From Promethearchaeota archaeon (GTDB taxonomy: Archaea; Asgardarchaeota; Lokiarchaeia; Sigyniarchaeales; SOKP01): 11,572 nucleotides of DNA. Under the pieces are notes generated by a model. The model saw only the letters and a list, made by a program, of their open reading frames with translations. It was not told the origin of the DNA and ran no database searches. How positions within the stretch are numbered: position 1 is the first letter of the stretch; every line of letters starts with the position of its first letter. Location: the NCBI GenBank assembly GCA_048941015.1, contig JBHLNZ010000089.1, positions 1 through 11,572 on the forward strand, written 5' to 3'. The position numbers were made by a program, and so were the translations under genes. Shown here piece after piece: positions 1,179 through 10,515 of the stretch.

Positions 1179-1550
1179 TTAGATGTGAGTCCCACAGTAA
1201 GGACAATATTTAGCATCTTCACTAAGTAGTCGTTCCCCACAAAAACTACAAAACTTTGGGACATTTCCACTTACTTTTTCAATTTTTTCATTAGTATATG
1301 AATTATATGCATTTTGAGTTTGTGATTCATATTTTCTCTGCGAAATTCGATCATCAAAAGGATAAACTTTAGCATTACAATGGATGCAATGATCTTTTGG
1401 TTTACTGTAATATACTATTAAATAGATAAAAAAACCTATTCCTGTAAAAAAAAATAATACAATAGCTAATATACTGTTAAATTTTTCACGTGATAACAAT
1501 ACTCTTTGTTGACAATTATTGCAATATCCAGTGGGATTTTTAATAGCCAT
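1179..1550 (-). CDS. LITAF-like zinc-ribbon membrane protein with C-terminal zinc ribbon (paralog 2)
   Basis: CNNC, hydrophobic segment (LAIVLFFFTGIGFFIYLIVYY), HCIHC, linker, CSFC..CPYC. Aligns along its length with 334..711. Confidence 0.8.
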   Translation of the reverse strand: MAIKNPTGYCNNCQQRVLLSREKFNSILAIVLFFFTGIGFFIYLIVYYSKPKDHCIHCNAKVYPFDDRISQRKYESQTQNAYNSYTNEKIEKVSGNVPKFCSFCGERLLSEDAKYCPYCGTHI

Positions 1551-6782: not shown

Positions 6783-7601
6783 TTGGCAAAAAAAAAGAAA
6801 AAAGCTGAAGAATCAAAAAAGATTGAAGAAGAAGATAAAAGTGAAGATATAGAAATTGATTTTGATAAAGATTTTATAGAGGATTTTGAAGAAGATTTAG
6901 ACTTAGAAGAAGAACTAGATTTATTGGATACTAATAATTTAGGTGCTGAAACTGAGATAGCAGAAACAATAATCGATAAAGATGAAGAACAAAAACAACT
7001 TTATTTGAGTTGTGGAATTCATATTGGCACCAAATTATTATCTGGAGATGCAAGAAGATTTATCTATAGACAAACTAATTATGGTTTATATGTTATCGAC
7101 TTAACTAAAACTGATGAACGGTTAAAAATAGCTGCGAAATTTTTAAGTAAATATGTTGAAGAAGGGAGTGATCGAGTTATTGTCTCTTCTGTTAGAAGAT
7201 ATGGAAAAGAACCAGTCAAGATGTTTTGTAAAGTTTTAGGATGCCGCGCAATCACTGACAGATTTATCCCTGGATCTCTAACTAATCCCCTCATAGATGA
7301 TTATATTAAAGATGCCTCCATTGTCGTTATTGTTGATCCTCATGCTGATAAGGTTATTTTAAGGGAAGCAAAATTAGCACGCATTCCTGTTATCTCTTTA
7401 TTCGACACTGATGACACTCTCGATGGAATTGACCTTGCTGTACCGGCGAATAATAGAGGTAAAAAAGCATTAGGGCTAGCATTTTTTCTTTTAGCAAGAC
7501 AAATTATGTTTGAATTAGGAAAAATTTCAAGTGAAGATGAATTTCCTTATACTCTTGAAGAATTCACCTCAAAAATAGTACCTGTCTACCGTCAGGAATA
7601 A
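6783..7601 (+). CDS. rps2: 30S ribosomal protein uS2 (archaeal type) with ~70-aa acidic N-terminal extension
   Basis: YLSCGIHIGTK, GLYVIDL.KTDERL..AAKFL, RFIPGSLTNP, DP..D....EA....IPVI...DTD, PANNRG motifs of archaeal/eukaryotic uS2. TTG start. Confidence 0.95.
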   Translation: MAKKKKKAEESKKIEEEDKSEDIEIDFDKDFIEDFEEDLDLEEELDLLDTNNLGAETEIAETIIDKDEEQKQLYLSCGIHIGTKLLSGDARRFIYRQTNYGLYVIDLTKTDERLKIAAKFLSKYVEEGSDRVIVSSVRRYGKEPVKMFCKVLGCRAITDRFIPGSLTNPLIDDYIKDASIVVIVDPHADKVILREAKLARIPVISLFDTDDTLDGIDLAVPANNRGKKALGLAFFLLARQIMFELGKISSEDEFPYTLEEFTSKIVPVYRQE

Positions 7602-7758: not shown

Positions 7759-8535
7759 ATGAAAAAAATTATAGCTTTTGCCGGAAAAGGAGGAGTGGGT
7801 AAAACTACTAGTCTTGCGCTTCTTCTAAAATATATTATTGACAATAAAAAGGCTAAGGATATATTAGTAATTGATTCTGACCCTGATGCTAATGTAGCAG
7901 ATGTAATAGGAGAAGAAGTAAGTTTTTGCGATACGATTGGCGGAAAAATGAAAGTATTAAAAGATAAAATTCAGAGTTTGAAATTATCACCCAACACTCC
8001 CAAAAGTCAGTTGATTGAATCTGATGTATATAATTGTCTTATTGAAAAGGATGAATTTGACCTTTTGGAAATGGGTCGCCAAGAAGGTGAAGGTTGTTAT
8101 TGTTTTATAAATGATGTCCTTAAAAAAGTAATTGATACCTTATCGAAAAACTATGATATTACGTTATTAGATTCCCCGGCAGGATTAGAACATTTTTCTC
8201 GAAAAACAGGAAGAGACGTCACCGATCTGGTTATAGTTACGGATCCAAGTAAAATGGGCATCCATACCATGAAACGCATTTTAGAAATATCAAAAGAAGT
8301 AGAGTTAAAGTTTGAAAATATTTGGATACTTGGGAATCGATTTCCAGAAAATTTAAGATCCATTTTAGAAAATGAAGTTGCTAACCTACACGAAAACAAC
8401 GTAAAATTACTAGGTTTTATCTCCAACAATGATAAAATTAGTGAAATAAATTTATCGGGGGGAAATTTATTAAATTTAGCTGGAGATAACACGTCATATC
8501 AAGAAGCAAAACAATTATTTGCAAAAATTATTTAA
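7759..8535 (+). CDS. cooC: CooC/AcsF-type nickel-insertion ATPase (MinD/ParA family; CODH/ACS maturation factor)
   Basis: Deviant Walker A GKGGVGKT, IDSDPD.N, LLEMG, GEGCYC (Ni-binding CxC), D..AGLEH.SR, DP, GN motifs. Confidence 0.88.
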   Translation: MKKIIAFAGKGGVGKTTSLALLLKYIIDNKKAKDILVIDSDPDANVADVIGEEVSFCDTIGGKMKVLKDKIQSLKLSPNTPKSQLIESDVYNCLIEKDEFDLLEMGRQEGEGCYCFINDVLKKVIDTLSKNYDITLLDSPAGLEHFSRKTGRDVTDLVIVTDPSKMGIHTMKRILEISKEVELKFENIWILGNRFPENLRSILENEVANLHENNVKLLGFISNNDKISEINLSGGNLLNLAGDNTSYQEAKQLFAKII

Positions 8536-9193
8536 AAAATTCATTAACTTTTTTATTCCGAAAACGCTTTTCTACACCATTACGCATTCCGGGTAACTTA
8601 AAACAGCTTTCAGGAATCATTCTTTTAAAAAATGACTGATTTTCTCGTTCCAAAATAAATTGTGAATTATATAACGTCTCAAAGATTTCTTTACCAGAAA
8701 ATTGAATGTCTTCAAAGTATGGAATAATAGGACGATTTTTACTAATTTTTTCAACAACCTTCTTTAGGGGTGAATCAACCTCATAAATGTTCCCTTCTTC
8801 ATTAATTATCGCAGTTTTATGGACATATTCATTATATAAACATATAATACAACTAGGCCATCTTTCATGAAAGTATTTCAAAACAAGGTCCATAACTCGA
8901 TGCTTAAGTAATACTACTCCAAAAAGCACTCCACGATTATTTATTTCTGTTCGTGTAAATTGTTTTGCCCGATATGCTTCGGTAAATACCTCACGCATCA
9001 TCTTATTAAATTTCTTTGCTAAAGGTGATCCAGAATTACGCAGTACAACCTCTGGCAATTTATTAATTTGTTGAGAAAGAATTGGAGAAAAATTCACGTG
9101 GCGAGGTAAATTTGTTTTTAATTCTTTTCGTGAATACCCTTTTGCTCTTCCAATCACTTCTAATGGATCCTTTTCACATTTTTTTTTATTCAA
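8528..9193 (-). CDS. DUF4130 / TIGR03915-like putative DNA metabolism protein (partner of the radical SAM)
   Basis: V..EAYRAKQF.R, H.V......YF.ERW, LYNSQFI.ER.N......MIP.....LP match the DUF4130 pattern as recalled. The TTG start overlaps the radical SAM stop (TTGA), matching the usual gene order. Confidence 0.75.
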   Translation of the reverse strand: MNKKKCEKDPLEVIGRAKGYSRKELKTNLPRHVNFSPILSQQINKLPEVVLRNSGSPLAKKFNKMMREVFTEAYRAKQFTRTEINNRGVLFGVVLLKHRVMDLVLKYFHERWPSCIICLYNEYVHKTAIINEEGNIYEVDSPLKKVVEKISKNRPIIPYFEDIQFSGKEIFETLYNSQFILERENQSFFKRMIPESCFKLPGMRNGVEKRFRNKKVNEFFK

Positions 9194-10515
9194 GGGATTC
9201 CTCTTTGAGTTATTTTATTATTATATTTAAAAAAATCTTGAATAGTTTTCTGACTTTTTCCATTTATTATCAAGTAAGGATCTGCCCTTTTAAGTACAAC
9301 TCCAACAGATTTCAAATCTTTACGATTTTTAAATTTATATTTTTTACTTCGCAAATTTATAATTCGTTTAGCTGAAATAGGACCTATTCCTGGGACCCTT
9401 AATAACTCATGATAACTTGCTTCATTTATATCTAATGGTCCACGGTCTTTAAAGTAATTTCTAGCAAAATGGATTTTGGGGTCTCCTTCAGGTAAATTTC
9501 CCTTTTCATTTAAAACCTCTTTTAAATCTTCTAACTTATAATGATAAATTCTTAACAACCAATCACTTTGGTATAGACGATGCTCTCTTGCGAGAGATGT
9601 CGCTTTTTTACCTGCTAACGGAGTGCCTTCTATCGGGATAAATGAAGAAAAGTAGGCACGTCTCAAATCTATTTCTTTATAACCCCAATCTATTCTTTTT
9701 AATAAGTCAAAATCAGTTTCTTCATCTACAGCTCCTATAACAAATTGAGTTGTTTGTCCCCCATTAAGAATCGGTGCCCCATCCCATCTAAATTTTTTAT
9801 AACCATCTTCTCTTCGATCTTTGATCATTTTTTCTTGATAATTATATTTATAGTCTTGTTTTAAGTCTTTCATGAGTTTAAGAGTCTTTTCATTATGTTT
9901 TATACGAATTTCTTTTAACCAGCGCTGTCGTTTCACAATATCGTTATAAAAATCCTTTTGTTCAGCAATTTCGGCTAAAAATTCTTTAGTTGATGCTTCT
10001 GAATTTATCGAGATACGATCTGAGAGACCTATTGCTTCTTTTAAAAGATATTGACTTGTCCCTGGTAAACATTTAAAATGCACATAACCACGAAAATTAT
10101 ATTTAAACCTTAAAAGATGAATTGCTTCTAACATCTCCTCAGTTGTTTGATCAGCACTACCACAGACACCTGAAGAAATGAATACACCTTCCACAACATT
10201 CATAGAATACAGCTTCATAAACGTACGTGCATATTCTTCAGGTGTAAAGCTCATCTTATGTTTACAACTATGAGAAAAGCAATACTTACAATTATAAATA
10301 CATTTATTGGTGTATAGAGTTTTAAATAGGCTCATACATCGCCCATCAGGAGTATAACTGTGGCAAATTCCTGCATTAGCCGTTGCCCCGATCCATCTGT
10401 TTGAATCTCCAAAAAGTTTTGGGTACTTGTTAGTACGACTAGAAGCAGTACTAGCACAAATATCAAATTTAGAATTTTCTCCGAGAATCCGTATCTTTTC
10501 TAAGATTGATGGCAT
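9190..10515 (-). CDS. Putative DNA modification/repair radical SAM protein with C-terminal helix-hairpin-helix (TIGR03916-like)
   Basis: KFDICAS, GICHSYTPDGRC.SL.K.L.TN, CIYNCKYC (CxxxCxxC), EGVFISSG, GYVHFK..PG, DRISIN.E, GQTTQFVIGA, RRAYFSSF.P, REHRLYQSDWLLR.Y, DPK, DINEASYHELLRVPGIG..SAKRI (HhH). Confidence 0.92.
   Translation of the reverse strand: MPSILEKIRILGENSKFDICASTASSRTNKYPKLFGDSNRWIGATANAGICHSYTPDGRCMSLFKTLYTNKCIYNCKYCFSHSCKHKMSFTPEEYARTFMKLYSMNVVEGVFISSGVCGSADQTTEEMLEAIHLLRFKYNFRGYVHFKCLPGTSQYLLKEAIGLSDRISINSEASTKEFLAEIAEQKDFYNDIVKRQRWLKEIRIKHNEKTLKLMKDLKQDYKYNYQEKMIKDRREDGYKKFRWDGAPILNGGQTTQFVIGAVDEETDFDLLKRIDWGYKEIDLRRAYFSSFIPIEGTPLAGKKATSLAREHRLYQSDWLLRIYHYKLEDLKEVLNEKGNLPEGDPKIHFARNYFKDRGPLDINEASYHELLRVPGIGPISAKRIINLRSKKYKFKNRKDLKSVGVVLKRADPYLIINGKSQKTIQDFFKYNNKITQRGIP

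Follow-up and report, generated by a model that had tools for sequence, protein, structure and literature searches.

Gene pairs that encode a radical SAM protein with a helix-hairpin-helix domain (rSAM-HhH) and a DUF4130 protein occur widely and are under SOS control in bacteria; their biochemistry is uncharacterised. LexA regulates the bacterial COG1573-COG4277 operon (PMC8565304). A preprint predicts that a bacterial DUF4130-rSAM pair forms a heterodimer containing a narrow channel; it sets this complex beside MiaB and RlmN, two RNA-modifying rSAM enzymes, and favours single-stranded nucleic acid, with the type of nucleic acid left undecided (bioRxiv 10.64898/2026.08.19.745780). The UdgX papers that we examined do not mention an rSAM partner.

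Two other systems are relevant for comparison. NucS/EndoMS, a repair enzyme of Archaea and some Bacteria, works with PCNA in archaeal hosts and with the beta clamp in Actinobacteria (PMC6159515, PMC6159521). In each domain its activity depends on the resident sliding clamp (PMC6159515, PMC6159521, PMC8228993), and it provides a precedent for host-specific clamp motifs. It differs from the pair described here in its unrelated fold, nuclease chemistry, single subunit, and experimentally demonstrated clamp binding. Spore photoproduct lyase (SplB, COG1533) resembles the role proposed below in that it is a radical SAM enzyme of direct DNA repair that is SOS-regulated in some bacteria. To our knowledge, SplB is the only well-understood model of rSAM chemistry on DNA, and it has no HhH domain, DUF4130 partner, or clamp motif. 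The pair showed no match to the SPL family at E <= 0.01 in Pfam or NCBIfam, and the fold matches listed for the rSAM protein do not include SPL.

An rSAM-HhH/DUF4130 gene pair in an Asgard archaeon

The window (the entire 11,572-nucleotide stretch of Asgard DNA that was analysed) contains two co-oriented, adjoining genes for an rSAM-HhH protein and a DUF4130 protein, a layout that is found in archaeal as well as bacterial loci (Table 1). The plus-strand sequence at 9190-9193 is tcaa, that is, TTGA on the coding strand, where the two genes overlap by 4 bp. The coupled arrangement described in the sequence-only reading is thus confirmed by the gene coordinates, and the overlap suggests translational coupling. 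One ortholog on record starts with MNKKKCEKDPLEV. No conserved flanking genes were found around the pair, and a relative with 82% identity has wholly different flanks, so that gene context offers no hint of function.

Table 1 Features of the rSAM-HhH/DUF4130 locus (positions in the window)
Feature	Position	Strand	Basis
rSAM/HhH protein, COG4277/TIGR03916-like, 441 aa	9190..10515	-	Radical_SAM 68-207, HHH_3 360-404, TIGR03916 profile
DUF4130 protein, 221 aa, TTG start	8528..9193	-	PF13566 at residues 47-197
TTGA overlap: rSAM stop TGA and DUF4130 start TTG	9190..9193	-	gene calls
N-terminal cysteines C20, C51, C60, candidate auxiliary cluster ligands	10336..10458	-	conservation
CxxxCxxC [4Fe-4S]/SAM motif, C72/C76/C79, in CIYNCKYC	10279..10302	-	protein sequence
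Charged insertion of ~45 aa, residues ~205-250, found only in this Asgard clade	9766..9903	-	split homolog matches
Helix-hairpin-helix DNA-binding domain, residues 360-404	9304..9438	-	HHH_3 E 1.9e-13
PIP-box-type motif QKTIQDFF, residues 422-429, 12 residues ahead of the C-terminus	9229..9252	-	sequence, ortholog conservation
PIP-like tail NKKVNEFFK, residues 213-221, immediately before the stop	8531..8557	-	sequence, ortholog conservation

The rSAM protein scores 340.0 bits (E 2e-101) against TIGR03916, 3.5 bits below the curated NCBIfam cut-off of 343.5, and its same-genus orthologs reach 345-370 bits; the tree nests it within the archaeal clade of the family. The score just below the cut-off goes with the 45-aa insertion that splits the profile match: homologs align in two stretches (1-~205 and ~250-428) separated by a gap, and AlphaFold2 (AF2) models the insertion as helices 189-217 and 224-232. 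The Pfam Radical_SAM match is at 33.6 bits against a threshold of 29.5. The cluster motif, the extra N-terminal cysteines, and the HhH domain noted from the sequence are all borne out by the domain match and by homolog conservation. C72, C76, and C79 are invariant in 67/67 aligned homologs, as is the VPGIGP of the HhH domain in the homolog alignments. Among the same 67 homologs, C20 is conserved in 56, C51 in 40, and C60 in 50, and all three are retained in 26/26 close Asgard orthologs. These cysteines are candidate auxiliary cluster ligands, and the loop between them (28-45) is modelled as disordered (pLDDT <50). The model of the whole protein has a pLDDT of 88 and a pTM of 0.87, and a Foldseek search of the PDB with it retrieved generic radical SAM folds (HydE, PFL-AE, viperin, BioB; TM about 0.37-0.40), among which no substrate clue was found.

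The partner matches PF13566 (DUF4130) with 44.4 bits, against a Pfam gathering score of 27. The equivalog cut-off of TIGR03915 (112.25 bits) is not reached: the score is 33.7 bits, over profile positions 98-234 of 243, and the N-terminal third of the bacterial TIGR03915 proteins is absent. By these profile scores, the protein is best filed as a DUF4130 protein and not as a TIGR03915 equivalog. Its residues ~1-156 align with the linker and DHHA1 part of RecJ/GAN/Cdc45 and with AlaRS C-Ala at Z 6.0-6.9 (7ykv_A, rmsd 6.7, 130 aligned; 8q6o_J, rmsd 3.7, 132 aligned), below 8 and hence in the range where a shared arrangement is possible. The likeness agrees with that described in the preprint on the bacterial pair (bioRxiv 10.64898/2026.08.19.745780). 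The DUF4130 protein has neither the DHH catalytic domain nor the catalytic residues.

The archaeal pair has in common with the SOS-regulated bacterial COG1573-COG4277 operon (TIGR03914/TIGR03915/TIGR03916) the rSAM-HhH architecture, the invariant CxxxCxxC, the DUF4130 gene directly downstream, and a short clamp-type peptide after the HhH domain. Among the named control genomes, Caulobacter vibrioides and Bacteroides thetaiotaomicron gave matches to both family models. The archaeal pair differs in that the rSAM tail is of the PIP type and not QLxLF, the rSAM carries the insertion, and the DUF4130 protein is N-terminally shorter, bears a PIP-like tail of its own, and lacks a UDG domain; furthermore, archaea are not known to have LexA.

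PIP-type tails on both proteins

Both terminal motifs named in the sequence-only reading are present. In the rSAM protein, QKTIQDFF is a canonical fit to the PIP-box pattern that we applied, Qxx[LIMV]xx[FYW][FYW or aliphatic]. The shorter form Qxx[LIM]xx[FY] is retained by 121/121 close Asgard orthologs, many of which terminate exactly there, and by 10/12 rSAM proteins of other Asgard families; in the close orthologs, position 8 of the motif varies between F, I, T, M, and V. The archaeal rSAM proteins that depart from the canonical tail include those of Methanobacterium (QATLEF or QSTLV) and of Asgard family f8 (QLKLDEVY), along with one Nanoarchaeia sequence. Bacterial homologs often share a Q at the same alignment position (..NG+xQG..), so part of the rSAM motif may be structural.

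In the DUF4130 tail, N takes the place of the Q of the PIP pattern (NKKVNEFF), as it does in RNase HII of the same genome (NKKITEFF). The full-length Asgard DUF4130 orthologs listed (118 of 120) all end in ..RN[KR]x[IL]x[DE][FY][LFI], and conservation among the close orthologs extends beyond the length of a PIP box, over GVEKRFRNKKINDYL. When archaeal phyla are compared, what is retained shrinks to the core L-x-[DE]-[FY]-x, and the linker varies in both length and sequence. An h-x-x-aromatic motif (h, hydrophobic) lies within the last 25 aa of 34/38 other archaeal DUF4130 partners (12.2 expected from shuffles), compared with 0/5 bacterial ones. The tail sits past the end of the TIGR03915 profile and, by this comparison, is an archaeal addition rather than a swap.

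In the AF2 models, both tails lie outside the folded cores, in low-confidence termini that pack on neither protein's own core. Along residues 421-441 of the rSAM protein, pLDDT declines from 73 to 37, and a short helix is modelled at 426-432. In the DUF4130 model (pLDDT 82.8), the last 20 residues fall to 63-51, and the aromatic pair is placed in a short helix.

Tail type follows the domain of life

We classified 80 named GTDB loci, with 42 archaeal and 38 bacterial rSAM proteins, by the spacing from the Q of the tail to the hydrophobic residue. PIP-like rSAM tails were found in 35/42 archaeal loci, the PIP class without Q being loose (h-x-x-aromatic occurs in 25/42 shuffled archaeal tails). 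Among the bacterial rSAM proteins, 29/38 carry a Qxx[LMF][FW] tail (QLSLF type; 1.3 expected from shuffles), and 8 more have near variants, such as QLPLL or QMCFL. The QLxLF-like beta-clamp motifs that the sequence-only reading ascribed to many bacterial TIGR03916 proteins are, therefore, confirmed. The PIP motifs are conserved in archaeal orthologs from Asgard, Halobacteriota, Thermoplasmatota, and DPANN, and are absent from the bacterial homologs, in which the rSAM tail is of the QLxLF type and none of the five DUF4130 partners carries a clamp motif. Across ten clusters at 50% identity, every named member conforms to the split into tail types A (Woesearchaeota, Diapherotrites, Micrarchaeota, Methanosalsum) and B (Selenomonadales, Peptococcaceae, Armatimonadota, Anaerolineales, CPR3). 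The one bacterial exception (L034) comes from a 'Sulfurovum' MAG, on a contig of 6.7 kb: it has an archaeal-type tail on an rSAM that falls within the archaeal clade, and its neighbours (tyrosine recombinase, PHO4, UPF0047) are compatible with misbinning or transfer.

A tree built without the tails has a single branch that parts archaea from bacteria (support 94, unstarred), so the correlation of motif and domain may rest on one ancient event; selection on tail type can be argued only from the persistence of each type within its clade. Accordingly, the earlier proposal that the archaeal copy had switched to PCNA motifs stands as to the difference in tail type between the domains, but not as to the direction of change, nor for the DUF4130 tail, which appears added and not swapped.

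PCNA and its clients in the host genome

The host genome encodes one PCNA (L001:1066-1872, minus strand). Several of its clients end in tails of the same kind as those of the pair, namely FEN1 (..QVSLDSFFKK), PolD DP2 (..QQKLSDFF), RNase HII (..NKKITEFFN), the Y-family polymerase (..QTSLIKFVKA), and Nre (..QRTIDNYL), all of which, unlike the rSAM pair, are known replication or repair factors. As a check on chance occurrence, we scanned the 2525 host ORFs with a length of 150 aa or more. The strict PIP pattern occurs in the last 20 residues of 22 (0.9%), and 35 (1.4%) have the [QN] variant within their 12 C-terminal residues, several of the motif-bearing ORFs being true replication or repair proteins. 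Given this background, chance is unlikely to have placed two such tails in a single operon (about 1e-4 if independent). The same genome also encodes an alpha/beta hydrolase family with VNxxIxxFL C-termini that are surely structural. In the literature searched, we found no radical SAM enzyme among the described PCNA clients and no report of clamp-docking tails on the TIGR03916/DUF4130 pair.

The prediction of a tail in complex with the host PCNA that the sequence-only reading had proposed was run with DUF4130 residues 188-221. It scored 0.49 (runs 0.49, 0.53, 0.42; best control 0.03), with a partner pLDDT of at least 48 and contacts agreeing in at least 73%. This passes a mark that is reached by 58/80 solved complexes and 2/110 mismatched pairs, but in the weak band: the passes at scores <=0.60 comprise no more than 7 of the 80 solved complexes, together with both mismatches. 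Solved PIP-PCNA complexes exist, so the pass may reflect likeness alone, and PCNA binding by the DUF4130 tail is only weakly supported by this model.

A probable clamp-tethered radical SAM enzyme and the alternatives

The overall interpretation offered in the sequence-only reading is supported. We estimate at roughly two in three the probability that the pair is a clamp-tethered, two-subunit radical SAM enzyme with DNA as its substrate, docked to PCNA by PIP-type tails. The stand-alone, translationally coupled two-gene operon would encode an rSAM subunit that holds a [4Fe-4S] cluster and SAM at CxxxCxxC and binds DNA via the helix-hairpin-helix, and a DUF4130 subunit whose DHHA1-like (RecJ/Cdc45-type) core binds nucleotides or single strands and which most likely heterodimerises with the rSAM and helps to hold the substrate strand. 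The flexible PIP-box-type peptide at the end of each subunit would dock the enzyme to the homotrimeric PCNA, perhaps with both subunits on one trimer, for radical chemistry (repair or modification of base or sugar lesions) on DNA at sites of replication or repair synthesis. In the bacterial counterpart, which is SOS-regulated and usually coupled to a family-4-like UDG, the rSAM would be tethered to the beta clamp via QLxLF. The domain-matched clamp peptide would indicate the workplace of the enzyme, clamp-loaded DNA at replication or repair synthesis, and, if this is true, radical chemistry joins the 'tool-belt' of the clamp. With the odds somewhat against it, we tentatively extend the proposal to COG4277/DUF4130 as a whole. 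It would be the first radical SAM client of the sliding clamp, processing lesions at the fork or during repair synthesis in hosts that range from Bacteria, where it would be SOS-induced and use the beta clamp, to Asgard archaea, with both subunits on one PCNA trimer. In this Asgard family, it would act without UDG and possibly replace part of base-excision repair.

The tails might instead serve other ends, such as subunit contact, DNA binding by the basic RFRNKK, or attachment to a different hub, with the PIP likeness arising by coincidence in a genome that is AT-rich and abounds in F, Y, I, N, and K. The long conserved stretch in close DUF4130 orthologs would fit such a role, but only the short core persists across archaeal phyla and the linker varies; the bacterial partners, moreover, have no tail and yet are predicted to form a heterodimer. 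The loose pattern is common by chance and recurs at the ends of the hydrolases of this genome, the Q of the rSAM motif is common to bacteria, and the complex prediction is weak. Yet bacterial rSAM proteins carry as their tail a textbook pentapeptide for the beta clamp, found far above expectation, AF2 packs neither archaeal tail on its own core, and the PCNA clients of the host bear the same tails. On balance, we consider a function of the tails away from the clamp unlikely.

Alternatively, one tail alone could be the working PCNA anchor, the other being a relic or having a different role, so that the complex would fill one clamp site and not two. Position 8 of the rSAM motif drifts and, in this protein, 12 further residues follow the motif, but a non-aromatic last position is frequent in archaeal PIP boxes; the DUF4130 tail lacks the Q, but so does that of the host RNase HII. 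Although the complex prediction covered the DUF4130 tail only, both tails are conserved over deep archaeal divergence, and we consider a single anchor decidedly improbable. Modification of RNA (rRNA or tRNA) or of a nucleotide, in the manner of RlmN, Cfr, or MiaB, with the HhH and DHHA1-like parts recognising RNA, seems very improbable. The preprint comparison with MiaB and RlmN leaves the type of nucleic acid undecided, DHHA1 domains occur in the tRNA-binding AlaRS C-Ala, and the rSAM fold search is generic. Domain-matched clamp-binding motifs, however, make sense on DNA only, and the bacterial operons are controlled by LexA and show linkage or fusion to domains of the uracil-DNA glycosylase family.

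Apparent independence from uracil-DNA glycosylases

The host genome (95% complete) yielded no UDG-superfamily gene by TIGR03914 or PF03167, nor did 38/40 relatives from the family, the other 2/40 giving a weak match. The sequence-only reading had left two options, a module that runs without UDG or one that uses it in trans. The lack of any UDG-superfamily match in the genome favours the former and makes the latter unlikely here, so the module would appear to work without a glycosylase. The apparent absence of UDG-superfamily genes in this Asgard family suggests a module that is independent of glycosylase, which would narrow the hypotheses on its substrate. An anti-correlation of UDG and rSAM genes across Asgard families was considered and dropped, as families f5, f8, and f16 carry both and kin are not independent. 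The linkage to the UDG family, from which TIGR03916 takes its name (rSAM_link_UDG), is not universal.

The radical SAM-DUF4130 gene pair

The gene for the radical SAM/helix-hairpin-helix protein (rSAM) and that for its DUF4130 partner occupy positions 8528-10515 of the window, both on the minus strand, with the rSAM stop codon and the DUF4130 start codon overlapping in TTGA (plus-strand tcaa, 9190-9193). The rSAM contains the core motif CIYNCKYC (C72, C76, C79), three more N-terminal cysteines (C20, C51, C60), an HHH_3 helix-hairpin-helix domain (residues 360-404), and QKTIQDFF at residues 422-429, 12 residues before the C-terminus; the DUF4130 protein ends in NKKVNEFFK. Gene coupling, cysteines, DNA-binding domain and both tails had been described in the sequence-only reading, and sequence and domain searches bore out every detail. 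The rSAM scores 340.0 bits against TIGR03916 (NCBIfam), 3.5 bits below the curated cut-off, and its partner passes Pfam DUF4130 (44.4 vs 27) and aligns with TIGR03915, the bacterial model, over the C-terminal two thirds alone (33.7 vs 112.25).

Both proteins have their nearest homologs among the Asgard archaea. The host genome (3.59 Mb, 95% complete), in which the window is contig C36, encodes one PCNA. The pair has unremarkable neighbours, namely genes for thymidylate kinase, an M28 peptidase, aconitase-family subunits, an HD protein, ribosomal protein uS2, a MinD/ParA-type ATPase and a TPP enzyme; no conserved neighbours were found in one relative at 82% identity, and the pair is a self-contained cassette. 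The 3' ends of the DUF4130 gene and the convergent ATPase gene overlap by 8 bp (8528-8535).

Features of the window and host proteins with PIP-like tails (G000, host genome; C, its contigs; L, loci)
Feature	Location	Strand	Remark
rSAM gene, 441 aa	9190-10515	-	upstream gene of pair
DUF4130 gene, 221 aa	8528-9193	-	downstream gene of pair; TTG start
MinD/ParA-type ATPase gene	7759-8535	+	
FEN1			..QVSLDSFFKK
PolD large subunit			..QQKLSDFF
RNase HII			..NKKITEFFN
Y-family polymerase			..QTSLIKFVKA
Nre			..QRTIDNYL
RadB/Rad51-like protein, L090	G000:C106:12609-13373	+	..NTTLDYWI
DUF72 protein, L083	G000:C10:2090-2959	+	..NQTGLDQFLK
DUF72 protein, L085	G000:C138:6433-7305	-	..QQRKLTDFFI
Deoxynucleoside/thymidylate-kinase-like protein, L086	G000:C83:2142-2630	-	..TQMSLFKFLK
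2-hydroxyglutaryl-CoA dehydratase component (not a DNA protein)			..QTRIEAFLEMI

Conservation of the tails

The PIP-type (PCNA-docking) motifs singled out by the sequence-only reading are conserved in archaeal orthologs. Q-x-x-[LIM]-x-x-[FY] directly follows the HhH domain in 121/121 close Asgard rSAM sequences and is the exact C-terminal end of many 429-433-aa forms, and ..RFRN[KR]x[IL]x[DE][FY][LFI] ends all full-length DUF4130 orthologs listed (118/120, the remaining two being C-terminally truncated). Twelve rSAMs of other Asgard families (~390 aa) lack the 45-aa insertion of the window protein; 10 of them carry a PIP-like motif, and their DUF4130 partners have ends such as ..SLDAFF, ..KLDEFFE and ..TLDSFL. 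The same two-protein pattern was found at named loci of Methanotrichaceae, Methanosarcinales, Thermoplasmatota, Halobacteria, Methanofastidiosa, Altiarchaeales and DPANN, with tails such as ..TTLEMWQA and ..QASLKRWF (rSAM) or ..TTLEDFLGEG, ..KTLDEYL and ..KLSEFF (DUF4130). Beyond the window's clade, 34 of 38 archaeal DUF4130 partners have h-x-x-aromatic within the last 25 residues (12.2 for shuffled tails).

Among 150 cluster representatives, the rSAM tails are of two kinds, PIP-like or Q[LM]x[LMF][FW], the beta-clamp pentapeptide (QLSLF, QLPLW, QLTLF). In ten clusters that were sampled, all named members follow one rule: PIP-like tails are archaeal and QLxLF tails bacterial. In a set of 80 named genomes, a PIP-like tail is present on 35 of the 42 archaeal rSAMs, and Qxx[LMF][FW] ends 29 of 38 bacterial ones (shuffles predict 1.3), with near variants in 8 more, which confirms the beta-clamp tails that the earlier reading ascribed to many bacterial homologs. 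No clamp-type motif was present in any of five complete bacterial DUF4130 partners, which end ..IPKKYWDWLEEGRLL.., and the DUF4130 tail, lying past the end of the bacterial TIGR03915 family profile, is an archaeal addition. Natural rSAM-DUF4130 fusions also occur (P0281, P0325 and P0329; 666-729 aa), two of them with QLSFF or QLSLF in the linker.

The sole bacterial rSAM with an archaeal-type motif (QARLSKWL) lies next to a tyrosine recombinase on a 6.7-kb contig (L034) of a MAG labelled Sulfurovum; because this protein groups within the archaeal clade, the contig is either misbinned or recently transferred. Exceptions to the PIP-like tail among archaea are the rSAMs of Methanobacterium (QATLEF, QSVLNF or QSTLV) and Asgard family f8 (QLKLDEVY...). 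The rSAM occurs alone in Methanobacteriaceae (L043, L048, L052, L054, L056, L081), f8 (L125, L129) and Anaerolineales (L036), and searches of five genomes of such lineages detected no DUF4130 gene at all. In these rSAM-only archaea the tails are shortened or degenerate; Chloroflexota retain the beta-clamp motif.

Does this partition reflect repeated switching? A FastTree phylogeny of 110 rSAMs, computed after removal of the tails, has a single branch (support 94, not starred) dividing 42 bacterial sequences from the 67 archaeal ones and the Sulfurovum contig, so a single ancient event, in either direction, could suffice, and the pattern does not represent many independent switches. The motif type follows the domain of life, as proposed, but the direction implied by an archaeal copy that "switched" to PCNA is not given by the tree. 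What argues for tail function is the persistence of each motif within its clade: the motifs are kept although clade members are only ~35-40% identical and tail length and other residues vary.

PIP-like tails in the host proteome

A scan of all 2525 host ORFs of at least 150 aa for [QN]xx[LIMV]xx[FYW][FYWLIMV] among the C-terminal 12 residues identified 35 with such tails, 10 of which, listed in the table, were compared against Pfam. The motif marks the known PCNA clients of the host, and RNase HII shares the N-for-Q form with DUF4130. The two DUF72 proteins, with canonical PIP-type tails, are candidate clients. False positives include an alpha/beta hydrolase family ending VNxxIxxFL.

Structure and complex predictions

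The rSAM model (pLDDT 88, pTM 0.87) is folded to about residue 421; beyond this point confidence drops from 73 to 37, and QDFFKYN lies in a short helix (426-432). The insertion specific to this clade lengthens a long helix (189-217, then 224-232). In the DUF4130 model (pLDDT 82.8), residues 21-160 form a confidently predicted core and the C-terminal region is weaker; pLDDT is ~51-63 over the final ten residues, where 216-220 form a short helix. Since the folded cores end before the tails and confidence is low there, both tails are predicted to be free in the monomers, as is usual for short linear motifs. The best alignments of the DUF4130 core are with the linker and DHHA1 part of RecJ2, Cdc45, GAN, PAP phosphatase and AlaRS C-Ala; their Z of 6.0-6.9 is under the level for trusting a shared arrangement; a DHHA1-like core agrees with a recent preprint on the bacterial pair (bioRxiv 10.64898/2026.08.19.745780). 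The rSAM core matched generic radical SAM folds only; spore photoproduct lyase was not among the matches.

Complex prediction for DUF4130 residues 188-221 with the host PCNA (23 relatives aligned) scored 0.49 (runs 0.49, 0.53, 0.42), the highest of three controls reaching 0.03; the verdict was 'weak support', with partner pLDDT of at least 48 and contact agreement of at least 73%. The mark is reached by 58/80 solved complexes and 2/110 mismatched pairs, but at scores up to 0.60 by only 7/80 solved complexes and by both mismatches. As many PIP-PCNA complexes have been solved, the pass may show likeness only.

Proposed role and the uracil-DNA glycosylase question

We suggest, with a probability of about two in three, that the pair is a radical SAM enzyme directed at DNA and probably heterodimeric, which would be recruited to the sliding clamp and work on the DNA at sites of replication or repair synthesis. 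Recruitment would proceed via PIP-type tails on both subunits in archaea, where both seem likely to be real PCNA anchors, and via the beta-clamp motif on the rSAM subunit in bacteria. The chemistry could be direct lesion reversal, processing of abasic or cross-linked sites, or modification. The repair enzyme NucS/EndoMS, which relies on PCNA in its archaeal hosts and on the beta clamp in Actinobacteria (PMC6159515, PMC6159521), offers a precedent. The literature searched contained no mention of clamp motifs on the rSAM/DUF4130 family.

Profile searches of the host genome yielded no match to TIGR03914 or PF03167, the latter detecting uracil-DNA glycosylases (UDGs) in 13/14 control genomes. The TIGR03916 family is named for its linkage to a family-4-like UDG, and in bacteria a COG1573-COG4277 operon is under LexA control (PMC8565304; PMC3765255). 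In the window's own family, a weak PF03167 match is found in only 2/40 genomes vs rSAM in 31/40, so the module here needs no UDG-superfamily partner, as had been allowed for. PF03167 matches occur in 131/201 sampled Asgard genomes; UDG accompanies rSAM in families f5, f8 and f16 and occurs without it in f7 and f12. An anti-correlation is not claimed, given how few the families are and that they are related.

Other features of the window and host

The uS2 protein (6783-7601, plus strand) has a ~70-aa N-terminal extension, lysine-rich and then strongly acidic, and its Pfam match is restricted to the later part. Two paralogous proteins of ~125 aa (334-711 and 1179-1550, minus strand) combine an N-terminal CxxC pair, a membrane helix and a C-terminal double zinc ribbon. 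PCNA of the host genus (L001:1066-1872, minus strand) has a conserved acidic C-terminal tail (..EDEDDMDEF); the ends of distant relatives differ.
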